Positions 9,075 to 58,498 of a stretch of 64,000 bases of DNA are shown here, in pieces (within the stretch, counting starts at the first letter, position 1; each line of letters starts with the position of its first letter). The position numbers and the translations under genes were made by a program. The DNA comes from Octopus vulgaris (Eukaryota). Location of the stretch: assembly GCA_951406725.2 (NCBI GenBank), contig OX597820.1, positions 119,102,001-119,166,000 on the forward strand. Reading direction: 5' to 3'. Under the pieces are notes generated by a model that worked only from the letters and a program-made list of their open reading frames with translations, searched no databases and was not told where the DNA came from.

Positions 9075-10310
9075 TCCGGTTACCCAGGATGCAACACTGT
9101 TGGTCTGGACTGTTATAGTGACAAGATGTGAGTTTTTTGGGGCTCCGTGAATGGAAAAAAAGCAAAAAGAAAAATTATATAGCGAGCAAAATACTGGGTT
9201 CTCATCACCGTAACGGTAAATTAAGAATTTTGGCTTCAAAATTCTTTTTGTAAATTCTAGTCGGCATATCTCGTCAGAAAAGGTACATTTTTACCGATCT
9301 TCAAGAATAAGCCTTTTGGATTACCTTTTTGGATTACCTTTTTGGAGTATTATACAAAGGATTCCCTGTCTGTGCTATTTGTGAGGTTTTTCTTTTACTT
9401 TTCCCTTTTCTTTCTAAATTTTGGTTCATTCTTTTCATTACTTTAATTTCAGTTTCCTCCCCTCCTCTTTTATTTTGTTTTATTTTTATTCGGTTTAATT
9501 TTTTGTCAGACTGTCTTTTGAACGACTTTTGAAATGTTTTTTGATATGGCAGAGAAGGAACCTAAAAAGAAAAACTCTGTCTTAGAGTGGGAAATTAATT
9601 CGCCTAAGCAGTGGTTAAAAGATATGGAGGAGAAGTCGGTGGTGCTTAGAACTTATTCTAAAGTTCTTAATTCCATCACCGTCTTCCCAAAACAAAGTTA
9701 TAGAAAACGAACTTAAAGACCAATTGTCCACTTTAAAATATATATCCCGCGGTGTCAAACATGCAACCGTATGGTTGCTGTTTGACAACGGGGAAAAGGC
9801 TCGCCAGTTTGCGAGTCAGCCTTTAGAAGGCAAGCAAAGTCTGTTCCTTCCGTCATATTGCGGGAGGAAATTAATAAGAGACTGGGTATGTGGGTTGCCC
9901 CCAGGCACCGAATCGGATTGGATTGAAGATACCATCCGACGGGGACTGGGAGGGGGGTGGCAGGCCCAGGCTCTTAAATGTAAGGGTATTGCCGGCGGTC
10001 AATTGGGAAGGGTCAAAAGCAATTTTGACCCTGTGGACCCCATCGGCCGCAACAGATCTGGTTTTTCCAGATTTTTTTTAAATGGATGGCTTCAGGTATC
10101 CGGTAATACTTGAGGGACGTCCCCCCAAGTGTCACTCGTGCCTGCAGGCCACATTGAAAGGAACTGCCCCAGGACCATGGTATGGGCCTGGAATAGTCAC
10201 TGGATGCCACCTCCCCTACCCTGTCAAAGGGAGAGGTGGATTAAAAAGGAAGAAGGTGGGCAACAATGGTTGCCCGCCGAAGGAACCTAATGCTTTGGGA
10301 GGTGGGGGAT
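9075..10310 (+). mobile_element. 5' part of an L1/Tx1-like LINE: 5' UTR and frameshifted ORF1
   Basis: Joined ORF pieces 9546-10310 end in YPVILEGRPPKCHSC..H, resembling an ORF1 zinc knuckle; follows a SINE B head at ~9036-9072. Confidence 0.6.
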
Positions 10311-10816
10311 AGACTCTATATATATATATATATATGAGTGTGTGTGTGTGTGTGTGTGTTTGTGTTTGTGTGCGTAGACATTACTTATGTGTGTGTTTGC
10401 GTGTGTAGACATTGCTTGTGTGTGTGTGTTTGTGGTGTGTGTACTGTTGTGAGTGTATGCATACACGGACATTATGAATTGCCATAAATAATGATACAAC
10501 TTCAGGTAGAACATGATACATTTTCTTCCATCAATAATACAATTCAATCACCAGTGAGATATTAACACCAATTTTCTTTCCTCAACAACACACACAGACA
10601 CACACACACAAACACACACAAGCGTACACACATAAGTGCAAAAACATGCACACGCATACAGAGGTACACTCGAGAATATATGTGTTTGGTCTGCGTGAGA
10701 TCGTCCATTTTTATTTATACCACACAAAATACACGTCACAGTATAAGCTGACTCTCCGGAAACTATTCAATATTTTGAGCAGTCCACCGCTGCTAAACTT
10801 TCAGTAGTAGTCTTTG

Positions 10817-10864
<48 letters not shown>

Positions 10865-10970
10865 TCACTCTCGCTCTCTCTCTCTCTCTCACTCTCTCAT
10901 ATTTCTTTCGCTGTTAATCACTGTTTTTGCACACACACATATTTATTGAAATCTCTCTCTCTCTCTCTCC

Positions 10971-11035
<65 letters not shown>

Positions 11036-11442
11036 GATCTATATATATATATATATATATATAGGCATATGTATATATATATGTATATGTCTGTATGAAT
11101 ATATATATATGTATATGCATATATATATATGTATATGTATGTATATATACATATATATATATGTATATGTATGTATATATGTATATATATATGTATATAT
11201 ACTTATAGGAGATTGTAAGAATGTAGGTATATATGCAATACGTGTGTATTTGTGAATGAGTGTGGGTGTAAAATACACAAAGCCGTACAAACACACGCGC
11301 GCACATGCACACGCACACACAGATTCATACTTATACATGTACATGTATATAAATCTATAAAATAAATATATATACATACATTATATATATATATATGTGT
11401 TTATATATATATTATATACTTATCATACACACACATACATAG

Positions 11443-11485
<43 letters not shown>

Positions 11486-11567
11486 CATATATATATATGT
11501 ATATATGTGTATGTATATGTATGTGTATATCTATCTATCTATATATATATATCTATATACATACATA

Positions 11568-11612
<45 letters not shown>

Positions 11613-11613
11613 T

Positions 11614-11659
<46 letters not shown>

Positions 11660-12034
11660 CATATTATATATAAAGTGAGGTAGATGAACAATGAGAAATA
11701 AAGTGAGTAAGAGATAAGAGGAAAGTGTTGTAAGAGGTAAATACATCTATATATATATACGAATGGTTTTTAAAATTTTATCAATGTTCCATTACTGAAA
11801 TTTGGGAATTCTTTTTCAAAGTCTTAATATTTTTTTTATTGATTGAACCGATAGTGGTATATTCTGCCTGGGGCTGTATTTCAAAGTCTTTGGATCTTCA
11901 GACACATTGCTTTTTTTCTAAGAAAGAACTTTATTGACACACACACACAGACACACACAGACACAGACACACAGACACAGACACACACACACACACACGT
12001 ACATTGATCTATATGTGTGTACATATATATTTAT

Positions 12035-12066
<32 letters not shown>

Positions 12067-12290
12067 GCATACTTAGCAGTGTGAATATATATATATATAC
12101 ACACATGTATATATATAAATACACACATATCTCTCTCTTTATCTATCTATAATTACTTATATGTGTGTGTGTGTATACGCATTTATATCAACATACGCAC
12201 ACACACATATATATATATAAGTAATACGTATTACGTGGTAATGTAGTAAGACGTTTGCATTCTAACTTACTTCTTCCTGTTTCAGTTATT

Positions 12291-12333
<43 letters not shown>

Positions 12334-12808
12334 GCATATACGAAAATAACGCTGGCTACACAAAGAACGAGAGGAATAAATGGAAACAAGACAAGTAACA
12401 TTAAAATACGACCCTTCATCAGTTGTTGGCTCTCCTTCTACTCCTTATTTCGAGCAACAAACGACAAGATAAGATAGCGAAGACTACTGCTCCCGTGAAC
12501 CAAAATAGAATTTGGGATTTTCAAATGAAATTTGGTAACACATCAGGACATACAACAAACCAAACCAAACAAATACAAGGAGGGAGGGCCGTTAGGCTCA
12601 GACGAGTTAACTTAGGGAACACTGGAAGAAGATTTTTTGGTAAGAGAAATGATAGGCGACGTGACAGATAGGAATGCGTCTGGACTGCACAACAAACTGA
12701 AGGGGAAGAAAGATGATCACGTGAGAAAACGTTTTCTGACGTCCTGTACACATATATGCATACCTATATACATACATATACATGTATGTACATGTGTGTG
12801 TGCTTATA

Positions 12809-12851
<43 letters not shown>

Positions 12852-13065
12852 TATATTATATAGATATATATATGTTATTTATATTATATATATATATATT
12901 ATTTATAATAGAAATATTAAAATTACTAAGTCTCTCTAAAAGAGAACAACGGCAGCGTTCCCGGAAAATAATAGTTATCGCCATACTAATATGGCATTCT
13001 TATAAAAATAAGAATAAAACCTTCGAACAGAGATTGTCAGAAGCGACACCTACTGGTCTGGCTAC

Positions 13066-13107
13066 GCTGCATTGAAAAGGGGCAATACCCCGAAACGCGT
13101 CTGTAGC
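13066..13107 (+). ncRNA. Minimal type I hammerhead ribozyme, U3-A8 core variant (copy 1)
   Basis: GCTGCA-TTGAAAA-GGGG-CAATA-CCCC-GAAAC-GC-GTC-TGTAGC: 6-bp stem I, 4-bp stem II, palindromic ACGCGT stem III, GUC site. Confidence 0.75.
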
Positions 13108-13428
13108 TGCCGGTCAAGTAGTGTGGAGCGACTGACCTCCCTTGTTCGAAGGTTATATGGATACAGTTTGTGTATCAAATAGCTAACTTAAGGCGATGGC
13201 CTCATGGAGCTAATAAGCGGACAGCTTTATTCTTATTTTTATAAGAATGCCATATTAGTATGGCGATAACTATTATTTTCCGGGAACGCTGCTGTTGTTC
13301 TCTTTTAGAGAGACTTAGTAATTTTAATATTTCTATTATTGAAAACAAGTGGATGTATTCCACCGAAGCTAGGTAAATAAAACCTTCGAACAGAGATTGT
13401 CAGAAGCGACACCTACTGGTCTGGCTAC

Positions 13429-13470
13429 GCTGCATTGAAAAGGGGCAATACCCCGAAACGCGTCTGTAGC
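13429..13470 (+). ncRNA. Minimal type I hammerhead ribozyme, U3-A8 core variant (copy 2)
   Basis: Identical to 13066-13107. Confidence 0.75.
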
Positions 13471-13645
13471 TGCCGGTCAAGTAGTATGGAGCGACTGACC
13501 TCCCTTGTTCGAAGGTTATATGGATACAGTTTGTGTATCAAATAGCTAACTTAAGGCGATGGCTTCATGGAGCTAATAAGCGGACAGCTTTATTCTTATT
13601 TTTATAAGAATGCCATATTAGTATGGCGATAACTATTATATTATT

Positions 13646-14100
<455 letters not shown>

Positions 14101-14125
14101 CATTGGACAGGGGTCTTTTTGCTCG

Positions 14126-14170
<45 letters not shown>

Positions 14171-14429
14171 GTGTGTGTTACTGTGTATGTATGTGTCTGT
14201 CTGTGTATGCGCTTGTCGGCAACATCGCCTCACAAACGGTGTTGGTTCGTTTACGTACCGCTAACTTGACTCTATGGCAACAAGTAACCTATATAAGAAG
14301 TACCACGCTTAGAAAAAAGCAATTGGGTGGATTTGCTTAACGCAATCTTTCAACGCATTCTGATGACTTATACAATTAAAAGAAAACAGAAAATTAATAC
14401 ATTGATACACACATATGTATATACATATC

Positions 14430-14513
<84 letters not shown>

Positions 14514-16097
14514 GTGTATCTGTGTGTCTGTATGCCTGTCAATGTATATCTATCTATCTATTTGTATGTGTATATGTATGTGTCTGTGTGTGCGCGTATG
14601 TAAAATAAAAGGATATAAAGGAAGAGTCTAAAGTATGGTGCGCATATTTTCATTGCATAGTTATTTATTAAGTATTGCACAATATTATATGACATTTCAT
14701 TTATTACGTAACTATCCCATTTCATCAGGTGCTGCCAAAGAAGTTACTTATATACATTTATACACAGGTATATCTCCACGTTTTGATTTTAAACAGTACT
14801 GTTTACTAGGATAGAGATGTCACTCTTCTTCTAGCAAGCTTGTTGAAGTCCTGGGACACACTCTGCCAGAGCAAATATGCGGCTATTTTCTCATAATCAA
14901 ATACATTTCATTCAGGTCAAATTCATGTCTCCCATTTTATGAAAGATATATTTGGCAACTGAAAGAATTGGTCATCAAAATCTACGGGATACTTTTCTTA
15001 TGTTAATGTTGTTATACAACTAAGTCGCCAAGCTGTCTTTACTAAGCAGGTATCATAATACTGTAACGTCCATCCTGCTTATCCAGTTTGTCCTTACACT
15101 AACTCTGTGGTGACGTATTAAATTGTCCTTGACGTAGTGTTAATATTGATGTCATTTACCACAAAGCAACATGAATTTTAGGGGACAATTTTATATTAAA
15201 GTTGTGCAACATCCTTTTCGAAAAGGAAAAGGGAAATATCATAGCGACAATTTAGATTTAATATATCGGTGTCCTCTATTGCAGAAACAATCCAATATTC
15301 TGGGGTAAATATAGTTTCAAGGCAATTGAAGTACCTTTCGACAATAATAATCCCAAGAGAATTGAATAGGAAATTTCATCCGGCCGTAAAATTGTACATG
15401 GTATAAATATACCCTAGAATGTAGATATATTGCATGTACATATGTAATACTGAGAGAGGCTTTAATATATATCAACGAAAGACTTTAAGGACGGAGCGTT
15501 GTGGATAACGTAATCGTAAAGCACGTGGTAAATCATACCCTAATACAAACCACAGCAGATCGATAAATGCTTGAGCAAAGAACTTTCGCCATGAGAAAAC
15601 TGCAAATTGGGAGATTGATGAATCCGATAGAGTTCACAAGAAACCGAGGCTTCTGTAGTCTGTTTCTTGGAATAAAATATAAAGCATTTCTATACTAAGT
15701 ATGGAAAGTATTATATAAAATGATGGAATCCACAACAGAGAAAACGGGGAAGTTAACAAGCGTAGTGTAGAGAAGGTGGAGTGATCTCTTTGCAGTGAAA
15801 AAATATGGGACCCAATTGGCAGAGAGGAAGAAGGGATCAAGCAAGTGCAAGAAGAAAATGGAACAACTGAGGATGGAGAAGAACAGCTTAAGAAAGCAAT
15901 GGAACGGCGTACATTCTGTCCTGATGATACCATAACCTGATACTCTCCGTTATTCAGTTCTTTCAAATGATAGCACTGGCGTCTGAAAGCTGTTTGCAAA
16001 TGACATAGATATGTCCTATATTTCTACACTTGCAGAATAAAATAGCTTTGTTTCTTCTCTCGCGCTCTCTCACTATACATATATATATATATATAGT

Positions 16098-27364: not shown

Positions 27365-27415
27365 TCCATATACTGTCGTCAGTTTCGGCAATCTCCGTTG
27401 CCTCATCAGTACGGA
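27365..27415 (-). ncRNA. Canonical type I hammerhead ribozyme
   Basis: Minus strand TCCGTA-CTGATGA-GGCAA-CGGAGA-TTGCC-GAA-ACTG-ACGA-CAGT-A-TATGGA: intact core, stems I/II/III of 6/5/4 bp, GUA site. Confidence 0.85.
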
Positions 27416-32797: not shown

Positions 32798-32999
32798 AAA
32801 CAGACTTACCGCCTCTGATGACTCGTATGTGGGTGTATATATTTCCCAATATATGTGAGTAGCGGTGTGTAAATAATTGTATATTTGAGAATGCGCGGGA
32901 GTTCGAATATATTTAGCCGAATGTGTATTGTGGATAAGTGTGTATACGTGTGTTTCTGTGTGTCTCTGTGTGCGTGCGAGTGAAAGTGCATGTGCGTAT

Positions 33000-33920
33000 G
33001 TATATGTGTGAGTGACGAGTGTGTAAGTCTGACTATGTACGTCTTTCTATGTGTAAATCATTTGTGTGTATATATATATATATGTATATATATGTCTATA
33101 AGCATGCGAACGTTGTATGATTGTTTGTATATATGTGTGTGAGTGACGAGTGTGTAAGTGTGACTATGTACGTCTTTCTATGTGTAAATTATTTGTGTGT
33201 ATATATATGTATATATATATATGTCTATAAGCATGCGAACGTTGTATGATTGTTTGTATATATGTGTGTGAGTGACGAGTGTGTAAGTCTGACTATGTAC
33301 GTCTTTCTATGTGTAAATTATTTGTGTGTATATATATGTATATATATATGTCTATAAGCATGCGAACGTTGTATGATTGTTTGTATATATGTGTGTGAGT
33401 GACGAGTGTGTAAGTGTGACTATGTACGTCTTTTTATGTGTAAATTATTTGTGTGTATATATATATATATGTATATATATGTCTATAAGCATGCGAACGT
33501 TGTATGATTGTTTGTATATATGTGTGTGAGTGACGAGTGTGTAAGTCTGACTATGTACGTCTTTCTATGTGTAAATTATTTGTGTGTATATATATATATA
33601 TGTATATATATATGTCTATAAGCATGCGAACGTTGTATGATTGTTTGTATATATGTGTGTGAGTGACGAGTGTGTAAGTGTGACTATGTACGTCTTTCTA
33701 TGTGTAAATTATTTGTGTGTATATATATGTATATATATATGTCTATAAGCATGCGAACGTTGTATGATTGTTTGTATATATGTGTGTGAGTGACGAGTGT
33801 GTAAGTGTGACTATGTACGTCTTTCTATGTGTAAATCATTTGTGTGTATATATATATATATATGTATATATATGACTATAAGCATGCGAACGTTGTATGA
33901 TTATTTGTATATATGTGTGT
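33000..33920. repeat. Minisatellite, 7 units of 127-133 bp
   Basis: gagtgacgag recurs at 33010, 33141, 33270, 33397, 33528, 33661 and 33788; length varies at an internal (TA)n. Confidence 0.95.
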
Positions 33921-34058
33921 AAGTTGTGAGTTTGAATGTTGTTACCGTTACAGAACACGTATGACTAAGTTAACATGAAGATATGTGTCGTTGAATGTAG
34001 ATGCACGAGTGAGTGGAGGTACGATCTGGCAAGGAATATATCACCGCGCATACGCATT

Positions 34059-47225: not shown

Positions 47226-48303
47226 CACAAAGACAATTAAGAGAAAAACTTGCACTGGAAAAAATGAAGACAGAAATAGAACTCCCTTAAGCTTAGAGCA
47301 ATAAGCAATGAACAAAAAGTTAAAAACATAGATGAGGAGATTTACAACGGATTAAAGAAACTTACGGACGGTCCCCGCTTGGAAAGTGTTTTTAAACTAT
47401 GGAAAACAACTTGCGTGGATGAAGAAACTAACTCCTTACAACGTTGGGAAAAACAAGCCAATTTCTTTAATAACTACGAAACTCAGTTTAACATAGAAAG
47501 CGCATCGGATAACCCCTTCCTGAAGAAAAATAAACCAAAAACAGACACAGAAATGATCCCACGTGTATTAAACACAAACCACAGACGGTCTAGGGGACGC
47601 AACTCAACCTTCTTTAACTCTCTTATTCCCCCAAATAACTATCAAACAACTACCCATAATTCAACCCACAGGAGTAAATCTAGACTTAATCTTCAAAGTA
47701 TCCCACATACAAACCAAAGTTAAGTTTTGGTGAACCAATTCCTACCAGGAAGAACTTACCTCCGAGACTTAACCCCCAACACAGCCACTTCAAGCAGTCA
47801 ACGAGACAAAACATGACTAGACAACATAACCTCTCCCTCCAACCATATCACAATATTAAAAATTAATTAAACCCAAACTACATTAGCCACAGACGATATA
47901 ACAACCCTCAGTACAACCATAATCCAGTACACTACCTTTCTGTGTAGTTCTTTCATTAATAGCACCACCTTAATGGCACATTTGCCACGAGCGGATTTGG
48001 TAGTTCTGGAACCTCGACTGGAAGAGAATCAGGTATCAAAAACATTTCTTCAACTTGGCACTCGATCGTCATATGTGGGACTAGAGGCAGTGGCGGTAAA
48101 ATACAGCTATCGAAAACCATAATTCACTCTGATAAAACAGTTTTGATTCAAATAATACAGTAAAGAAACGAAAAATTTCTCTCTGACAACCTAATAAGAT
48201 AGGCGCAAGAACAACGAATATCTGAACGTTGTGTGGAAGCCCGATGAAAAGCTAAAGATTTACATCAAAGAAGCTTTTGAGTTAATATTAAGATTAAAGT
48301 AGA

Positions 48304-56894: not shown

Positions 56895-58498
56895 GAAGAA
56901 CAAGAGACGAAGACAGGTGTATTAGTTTGATGCTCGGGAAGGTGAGAAAGTCTTCTACGTTTCGAGCCTACATTCTTCAGCAGAAAGGAACACGAGGAAA
57001 TAAACAGAGAAGGAATAAAAAAGATCTTGTGAATTTAGCGCTCAATCATGGAGACTGGTTAGAAAAAGGCAGTTGGATAGGAGAGCTGGGAAGAAGGGCA
57101 GATAATAAAGTACTGGTGATCCTAAAACTAAGGTGCGCTTGCGTATGTGTATGTGAGAGTGTGTGTGTATGTGTGGGTATGGGCTGGTGATTTTGACGTG
57201 TGTATGTGTGCGTGTAACTTGACGTGTGGATATGTGCACCTGTAATATGTGGGTGAATAGACGATGGTGTGGGTGTGGGAAGGTGGTCACTGCTAATGTG
57301 TGCTCCTGGAGGCGTTGGAATGAGAATGTGGTGGTGTTGTAACGAGGATGTAGGGGTGAGGTTGTGGGGTGAGGTGATGATGTGGGGTGAGTATGGAGGT
57401 GGAGGTGCCGGGGATAGGGGTAGGTATGTGTGGGGTGGATGGAGGCTGTATCAATGAAAGGAGAAGGTGCGTAGGAGTGAAGAGAGGAAGCAGGTGTCAG
57501 GGCAAAAGAGGGGAGAGCGAAGAGAAGAAGTAGGTATCAGATGAAGAGGGGAGGGGAGTTGAGCCCATATGGTACAAAGAAGCGAAGAGAGAAGATTAAT
57601 TCCGGTTCACGACAAAGGTGGGAGTCTGGATGGCCCCTGTGCAAAGATTGTCCGAATACAAACGGGTGTTGTAATTAATGAATGACCAGTTGAGCGGAAA
57701 TGACGCTAGACCGAGCGCCATTGCCGAGCCTAATGTCTCGGAGAGGCGCCGCGAAGCGATCAGCCAAGCGGCATCCCGTTTGACCGATGTACAGAGAAGG
57801 GCAGAAATAGCAGGAGATGAAGAAAATGAGGTTGGTAAAAGTGCAGGTAAAGGAGTCAATGATATGATAGGGAAGATGATGGGTGCCTGTGAGAAGGGTG
57901 GTGTTGGAGAGGCAGGGACAAGTGCGGCAGTGTGGGCGTGAGCAGTGGACCGAGCCAGCTTGGGAGATTAGGCTAGGGAAGAGACTGTGAACCAGGACTA
58001 TTGCTGGAATCGAACTGGAGTCACCGGAAGGCTCGCAGAATTGTGCGTTGGAGAAGGATGGAGGGGTTGTAGGTGAGAGGAAACGGGAGATGAGCAGCAG
58101 CAGGGCGTGTGCAAGGAGAGATCAGAGGCACAGCCCACGGAACGTGCTCTAGCAAGGGCGGTGTGGATAGTGGTGAGAGGATATCCACGAAGGTTGAAGT
58201 GGCGAGTTATGAGTTGAGACAGAGTCTCAAAGTCATGGTTGTCACTGCAGAACCTGCGCAGACGGAGGAATTAGGTTTAGGGGATGGAGAGCATGATGTG
58301 GGTAGGGTGGGGGGAGGAGAAGTTGAGGTATGAGTGTAAATCCGTGTTTGTGGTGGATGGAGGTAGGAGTTGCGTATGTTGACCGAAATGTCAAGAAAGG
58401 CGACGGAAGTGTTGGATATGGTGCAGGAGAAATGGAGGGCAGGATGGAAGGAATGGATAAAAAAGAGGAAGGAGTCTAGTTGTTGCAGGAAAAAAAGC
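56895..58498 (-). mobile_element. Penelope-like element (Neptune type), 5'-truncated and decayed: end of RT, CxxC linker, GIY-YIG endonuclease, terminal repeat
   Basis: VAFLDISV...HTYLNFSSPHP...FLRLRRFCS...RGYP; CRTC; DSFTCTFTNLIFFISCYFCPSLYIGQTGCRLADRF; terminal VPYGLN; family H repeat at ~56895-57050. Confidence 0.9.

Follow-up and report, generated by a model that had tools for sequence, protein, structure and literature searches.

The 64,000-nucleotide stretch of Octopus vulgaris DNA analysed here (the window; contig OX597820.1 of assembly GCA_951406725.2, positions 119,102,001 to 119,166,000 of the forward strand) carries, at 12905-13639, an insertion built from a 363-nt unit with a hammerhead ribozyme. 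By all the features testable here in the sequence, the family to which the insertion belongs is a retrozyme family without long terminal repeats (a non-LTR retrozyme). We consider it probable that this young family is cut by its own ribozyme, circularised, and copied into (TA)n DNA by the enzyme of a Neptune-like Penelope-like element (PLE), with priming at two sites. The ribozyme variant is by itself a modest finding, and a retrozyme is a known kind of element. What is new here is that the insertions have two fixed 3' ends, both after CTATTAT, that two-armed insertions strictly have one end of each kind, that the two arms of an insertion match in haplotype, and that the U3-A8 core and the end rule recur in a young, intact Neptune-like PLE of this genome that also targets (TA)n. 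The features of the locus are as follows.

12812-12904, no strand: left flank, (TA)n-rich target
12905-13018, minus strand: inverted arm, unit positions 214-327; its 3' end at 12905 is the far (L, unit 327) initiation site
13013-13018, no strand: 6-nt microhomology where the two arms meet head-to-head (arm overlap -6)
13013-13375, plus strand: complete 363-nt unit
13018-13154, plus strand: long hairpin whose tip holds the ribozyme, with compensatory changes seen between subfamilies as well as within them
13066-13107, plus strand: type I hammerhead 1; U3 at 13072, A8 at 13077, helix II at 13079-13091 and the palindromic helix III at 13095-13100, with a cut predicted after 13101
13102-13464, plus strand: predicted 363-nt monomer or circle, from circular folding
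13270-13276, plus strand: near (S, unit 264) 3'-end site CTATTAT of unit 1
13333-13339, plus strand: far (L, unit 327) 3'-end site CTATTAT of unit 1
13376-13639, plus strand: second, partial unit (positions 1-264) with the S site at its end
13429-13470, plus strand: second type I hammerhead, with the same sequence as the first and a cut predicted after 13464
13640-13754, no strand: right flank, (TA)n target

The original prediction had noted two identical motifs 363 nt apart, and the two 42-nt hammerheads were found exactly there, with GUC triplets ending at 13101 and 13464. It had also described a tandem of units with two differences, preceded by a 114-bp inverted copy. The two differences are present (13123/13486 and 13201/13564), but only over the 264 nt that the units have in common; unit-to-unit identity stops at 13639, so that the tandem comprises 1.73 units rather than two. 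The inverted copy is also there, with one mismatch to the unit, but it is the second arm of a PLE-type insertion and not a feature of the unit. No open reading frame (ORF) of 120 aa was found over the element. An imperfect TTATTTATATTATA-type pattern lies on either side of the insertion (12843-12901 and 13637-13698), perhaps as a target-site duplication, some 25 nt long, within DNA of low complexity.

Insertion anatomy and haplotypes across the genome

The genome (2.8 Gb in 227 contigs) contains 830 copies of the exact 28-nt core with U3-A8, and a further 209 exact cores belong to a sister subfamily, B, which is 81% identical and has a 362-nt unit. The proposal of a young tandem retrozyme family is supported. 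Anatomy was studied at 84 loci, namely the full set of 60 to which the first 100 cores in the list belong (contigs C1 and C2, and thus picked by place) and the 24 best-scoring loci. The copies are spread over many chromosomes, with unrelated flanks and variable 5' ends, and show no organisation of LTR, primer-binding site and polypurine tract, the last two not having been searched for separately. At the 60 place-picked loci, an arm is longer than one unit in 47, and at least two ribozymes lie in one arm in 24.

Also at the place-picked loci, 100 of 105 arm 3' ends fall at unit positions 260-269 (50 ends) or 321-329 (50 ends), in both cases after CTATTAT, and (TA)n follows directly beyond 92 of the 100. 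The 5' ends are scattered, those assigned to position 1 being partly an artefact of the unit boundary. Scattered 5' ends combined with fixed 3' ends are the signature of target-primed reverse transcription. A head-to-head inverted arm is present in 43 insertions of this set. Over all 84 loci there are 62 two-arm insertions, both arms being longer than one unit in 17 of them. Both ends could be classified in 57, and all 57 have one S and one L end. The same holds for 11/11 further insertions of the first subfamily, A (4 unclassifiable), and for 10/10 insertions of subfamily B (4 unclassifiable; L103 and L117 are duplicates), giving 78/78 classifiable two-armed insertions. Single-arm insertions use the two sites about equally (10 S, 11 L).

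The two arms of an insertion are also closely related in sequence. Opposite arms diverge by 1.49% and units of one arm by 1.19%, as against 2.93% between different loci, and opposite arms match at 428 of 441 diagnostic sites, compared with 59% (maximum 74%) in 2000 permutations. Variants seen at a single locus are mostly private (146/156), but inherited non-CpG variants are found in every unit of the insertion in 177 of 192 cases, which requires that a step from monomer to multimer has been repeated. The arrays thus appear to be born homogeneous, as rolling-circle copying predicts, the alternative being that the donor arrays were already homogeneous.

Hammerhead fold and its conservation

The core of the motif (UUGAAAA, GAAA and GUC) corresponds to the type I definition of YUGANRA/GAAA/UH with a Watson-Crick 3-8 pair. 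The 6-bp helix I is extended by way of an internal loop, 4 bp make up helix II, and a short palindrome forms helix III. It had been proposed that this was a minimal hammerhead, but its architecture is the canonical metazoan type I, as defined in the available text of PMC4209133. The U3-A8 core is real: with positions 3, 7, 8 and one loop base freed, 836 cores were found, and U3-A8 is fixed in 830 of them. It is not new, however, as about 1,300 U3-A8 motifs are described among the PLE-type minimal hammerheads of Schistosoma mansoni in the same text. A C3-G8 pair is present in the active hammerhead fold, according to the accessible part of PMC3884650. The C3-G8 version with the same helix II was found nowhere in the octopus genome. 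A looser pattern for a C3-G8 ancestor gave 24 diverged motifs with a canonical core, of which 15 were fetched; none of these is clearly homologous to the unit, the one match being of 43 nt (E 0.001). The 24 motifs (those fetched being L196-L210) have a palindromic helix III, each motif being different, and are read as older PLE or retrozyme families.

As had been suggested, the motif lies within a longer stem. The enclosing 139-nt hairpin has a folding z of -7.17, equalled by none of 200 shuffles, while the 46-nt motif by itself folds weakly (z = -1.68). For the circular 363-nt monomer the predicted minimum free energy (MFE) is -119.8 kcal/mol (z = -7.2 against 60 shuffles). The expectation that a read-through transcript would form the ribozyme dimer in cis agrees with the free MFE structure predicted for 13018-13517, which is a cis-dimer with a 6-bp helix III (-190.0 kcal/mol), but the longer 13013-13638 is predicted to fold as two monomer hairpins, implying two states that are close in energy. 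A contact between loops 1 and 2 like that of the Schistosoma ribozyme is, we presume, plausible for the U3-A8 motif.

A type I descriptor in which positions 3/8 could be either C-G or U-A matched, within the window, only the two motifs of the locus and one unrelated motif at 27409 on the minus strand, and had no match in 20 shuffled windows (a crude dinucleotide-block shuffle). The unrelated motif (27365-27415, minus strand, core at 27409) is hammerhead-like, with a canonical CUGAUGA core, a 5-bp helix II and a longer helix III. The hammerhead fold is not the MFE structure of its 101-nt context, and it is possibly a PLE remnant. A scan of 10000-16000 with Rfam models (E<=5) gave 127 matches with no hammerhead among them, and the standard models therefore miss the U3-A8 motif.

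The comparison of subfamilies A and B provides a view of which parts of the structure are kept. Subfamily B retains U3-A8, and differs at the free position 7, in the first pair of helix II (G-C to A-U) and in the palindrome, which is ACATGT in place of ACGCGT; it has also lost the first pair of helix I. Of 47 pairs, 7 have changed on both sides, including the helix II pair and the centre of the palindrome, in an alignment of 15 distinct sequences that is mostly a single contrast between the A and B clades. In this alignment 96.4% of cells are paired, against 31-43% for slid structures. Among 172 segments of subfamily A, 114 have C-G and 50 have T-A at pair 12/136. The palindromic helix III noted in the original prediction is kept, and selection on it is supported by these alignments. 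A comparison of variation in the core (0.78%) with that at positions 144-264 (1.27%) was considered as a sign of purifying selection on the core, and was rejected as biased because most loci had been chosen by an exact match to the core.

Cleavage might also leave a trace in the positions of truncated 5' ends. Among the ends within unit positions 81-97, 29 of 79 lie at 90-92, just 3' of the cleavage site (p 4e-5; a hand count, with 1 of 80 rows left out as an insertion rather than a truncation). When TA microhomology is allowed for, 31 of 79 lie at 90-94 (p 0.04). The run-off signal is confounded by this microhomology, and is thus weakened and not counted as proof of cleavage. In public sequencing runs, assembled contigs of 4 runs (4 studies, 3 organism codes, RNA status guessed) span the ribozyme without differences, such contigs being unable to show strand, ends, or a circle as opposed to a tandem. 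Of 24 rows returned for sequencing runs, 20 contain at least half of the query words (8 organism codes, 14 guessed to be RNA), with none listed as RNA.

The probable Neptune-like partner and a proposed route of insertion

A candidate for the enzyme was sought among GIY-YIG proteins, 150 of 6136 candidates being scored. Among these 150 there are many 781-aa ORFs with reverse transcriptase (RT) and GIY-YIG domains and a CxxxxCxxC linker, with a 479-aa ORF upstream. The linker points to a place in Neptune/Nematis, following the criteria given in the available text of PMC8557442. The pseudo-LTR (pLTR) of this PLE carries a minimal hammerhead with the core TTGATAA and a helix III of ACATGT, as in subfamily B, at 16 of 25 GIY-YIG loci. 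The PLE copies sit in (TA)n. Their two 3' ends are separated by 40 nt, and the far end comes after a CTATTAT-like stretch. All 6 of the two-arm PLE copies that could be scored have one S and one L end, a count that includes selection, as four of the PLE loci (L225-L237) were chosen for having an L end. The link to PLEs made in the original prediction is supported. The U3-A8 core, the (TA)n target and the end rule are common to the retrozyme and to the Neptune-like PLE.

It is worth adding some observations on PLEs in this genome. L079 and the related L076-L084 represent a young, intact two-ORF family of Neptune-like PLE, with a U3-A8 minimal hammerhead that has a very weak helix I and a cleavage triplet that varies among subfamilies. 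Another PLE family, at L085:4300-5000 and L090, has in its pLTR a stretch resembling a hammerhead, in which the second base of the core is altered. Within the window, 47228-47684 (plus strand) and 57729-58016 (minus strand) are fragments akin to the PLE upstream ORF (44-79% identity) and, weakly, to the RT-endonuclease (EN) ORF.

The proposed route is as follows. In a read-through RNA, two ribozymes would pair through the palindromic helix III and cut after C17 (13101 and 13464), and the monomer would be ligated into a circle, as in known retrozymes. The RT-GIY-YIG protein of the PLE would then cut both strands of (TA)n and use two CTATTAT sites of a single RNA, separated by 63 nt, to prime one DNA end each, as the anatomy of the insertions suggests. 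Each cDNA would extend beyond the cleavage site, by as much as several units, and the two cDNAs would be joined head-to-head by microhomology. The template of this two-site priming is likely the circular monomer. In support of the route, the Anolis PLE protein is reported, in the available text of PMC11167929, to cut and extend both strands, with internal starts at two tail-defining sites and a predicted dimer, and the retrozymes of coral, mussel and axolotl are described as circles in that of PMC7229834. More tentatively, and with slightly more doubt than conviction, we suggest that a dimer of the Neptune-like PLE protein loads one circular retrozyme RNA asymmetrically, with one subunit placed at 264 and its partner at 327, and primes both ends of the double-strand cut in (TA)n, strand displacement allowing both cDNAs to roll round the circle. 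On this view such two-site priming would leave the one-ended PLE tail and the tandem-plus-inverted architecture as its obligatory footprint, and the shared U3-A8 core would mark a captured and re-canonicalised pLTR ribozyme of that PLE lineage.

A number of results weigh against the proposed route. The 3-8 pair is invariant in the alignment, so that the covariation is no test of it, and 15 of the 192 inherited-variant cases are mosaic. L019:1174-2620 and L165:1237-2682, on two chromosomes, are the same two-arm composite, with the same junction and lengths, 98% identity and unrelated flanks, which implies that some insertions are copies of earlier composites. Apart from the core of the ribozyme and the CTATTAT-like end, BLAST detected no homology between the unit and the 20 PLE loci fetched. 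None of 21 single-arm 5' flanks shares sequence at the junction or runs into a longer common element, a weak PLE fragment lying further off in one, and in none of these flanks does the unit serve as pLTR to a complete autonomous PLE. Given the lack of longer homology and of a shared 5' flank, the PLE partner is inferred and not proven. From the literature, as far as the accessible texts go, Anolis insertion in vitro needed no ribozyme cleavage and the start sites of the Anolis PLE had no strand bias (PMC11167929), and 8 of 9 Xenopus retrozyme dimers were uncleaved in vitro, 1 of 9 being cleaved (bioRxiv 10.64898/2026.07.22.740005). The Anolis ribozyme reportedly depended on added PLE protein in order to cleave.

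An alternative is that the element is driven by the same PLE but copied from an uncleaved multimeric read-through RNA, the ribozyme being slow, dependent on protein or acting elsewhere, so that no circle is required. Most arms cross the cleavage site (121 segments of the place-picked set span 80-99), uncleaved RNA was the chief substrate of the Anolis PLE (PMC11167929, in the text available), and the pair L019/L165 indicates that composites can be recopied in their entirety. If arrays were copied linearly, however, mosaics and shorter arrays should result, and despite the many haplotypes the inherited variants are fixed across all units in the large majority of cases given above. In addition, helix II and the palindrome are maintained by compensatory change, and other animal retrozymes occur as circles, as the accessible part of PMC7229834 describes. 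We regard copying from uncleaved RNA as unlikely.

The S and L ends could also arise without two primers on the RNA, if priming happened once and the cDNA was then copied by fold-back, or if the endonuclease resolved the intermediate. We consider this reading improbable. Fold-back would likewise produce identical haplotypes and head-to-head junctions with microhomology (overlap of at least 2 nt in 41/62), the lengths of the two arms show a weak negative correlation (rho -0.27, p = 0.04), and the one-ended tail is attributed to EN-mediated resolution in the available text of PMC8557442. Fold-back predicts that one arm is always nested in the other, yet neither is nested in 13/57 insertions, a number near the 16.5 that independent arms would give, and the longer arm may be of either kind (S in 31/57). 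The non-nested arms, together with the fact that arms abut in only 3/57, argue against both fold-back and classic twin priming in the style of L1, which fails. A repeat moved at the level of DNA, either a miniature inverted-repeat transposable element (MITE) with 114-bp terminal inverted repeats or a satellite recombining between (TA)n tracts, with the hammerhead as a relic, is very improbable and largely refuted: 12905-13339 of this copy does resemble a terminal-inverted-repeat element in TA, and L019/L165 could be a DNA-level transfer, but inverted arms range from 26 to >1,500 nt with 50 distinct junctions in 57 insertions, unlike the fixed inverted repeats of a MITE, and the RNA structure covaries.

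Relation to known systems and other features of the window

The closest relatives in organisation are the metazoan non-LTR retrozymes (Cervera & de la Pena 2020, PMC7229834), for which the available text describes non-coding tandem units of 150-450 bp with GC below 50% (350-390 bp in Mytilus, 330/350 bp in axolotl), one canonical type I hammerhead per unit, a short palindromic helix III, a highly self-paired monomer and co-existing PLEs. All of this is shared by the octopus family. It differs, as far as that text describes them, in its fixed U3-A8, its strict (TA)n target, its two internal 3' ends and the inverted arm in most insertions. The PLE insertions of the Neptune clade (Craig et al. 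2021, PMC8557442, in the text available) likewise have partial tandems, an adjacent inverted and 5'-truncated copy, a one-ended tail, and a (TA)n bias tied to a CX2-5CxxC linker. The octopus unit has no ORF, its 'tail' is 63 nt rather than 30-40, and its one-ended tail is, among two-arm insertions, absolute (78/78) rather than found 'often'.

Poseidon_Ac of Anolis (Frangieh et al. 2024, PMC11167929) resembles the octopus family in having two internal tail-defining starts, an AT-rich target of which both strands are cut and extended, and a hammerhead upstream of the starts. According to the accessible text, its start is not homologous to the target and there is no strand difference, whereas both octopus sites end in TATTAT, which is (TA)n-like, and the two DNA ends always use different sites. 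The minimal hammerheads of the Cercyon PLE in S. mansoni show the same U3-A8 core covariation, but as described in the available part of PMC4209133 they are minimal, heterogeneous and mostly single, while the octopus motif is canonical, homogeneous and tandem. A link to PLEs is common to the octopus family and the Xenopus retrozymes (Li et al. 2026, bioRxiv 10.64898/2026.07.22.740005). In the portion of that preprint available, the link consists of co-occurrence and pLTR homology, found with canonical-core descriptors; the octopus link consists of a rare core and the anatomy of insertion, without long homology.

The enzyme that moves animal retrozymes was left open between LINEs (long interspersed nuclear elements) and PLEs in the available text of PMC7229834, and PLEs were later argued for on the grounds just given for Xenopus. 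In the octopus, the short RNA and its candidate partner, an intact ORF, have a target, an end rule and a rare ribozyme core in common, and form a natural pair that is directly testable. The origin of tandem and inverted PLE insertions whose tail is one-ended is listed among the tasks still open in the accessible part of PMC8557442, and it is constrained by a rule with no exception whose arms are haplotype-matched and not nested. It follows also that entire retrozyme families, here with >1,000 cores, escape CUGANGA descriptors and Rfam. No report of a U3-A8 retrozyme family, or of a strict rule of one end of each kind, was found in the open-licence literature, although the supplements of PMC7229834, PMC4209133 and bioRxiv 10.64898/2026.07.22.740005 may list such families.

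Two further repeats were noted in the window. Repeat-like sequence occupies 13755-14000 in the right flank, starting directly after the (TA)n run, and presumably resembles a Helitron-type start. At 32996-33924, a 127-nt unit is present in about 7 tandem copies.
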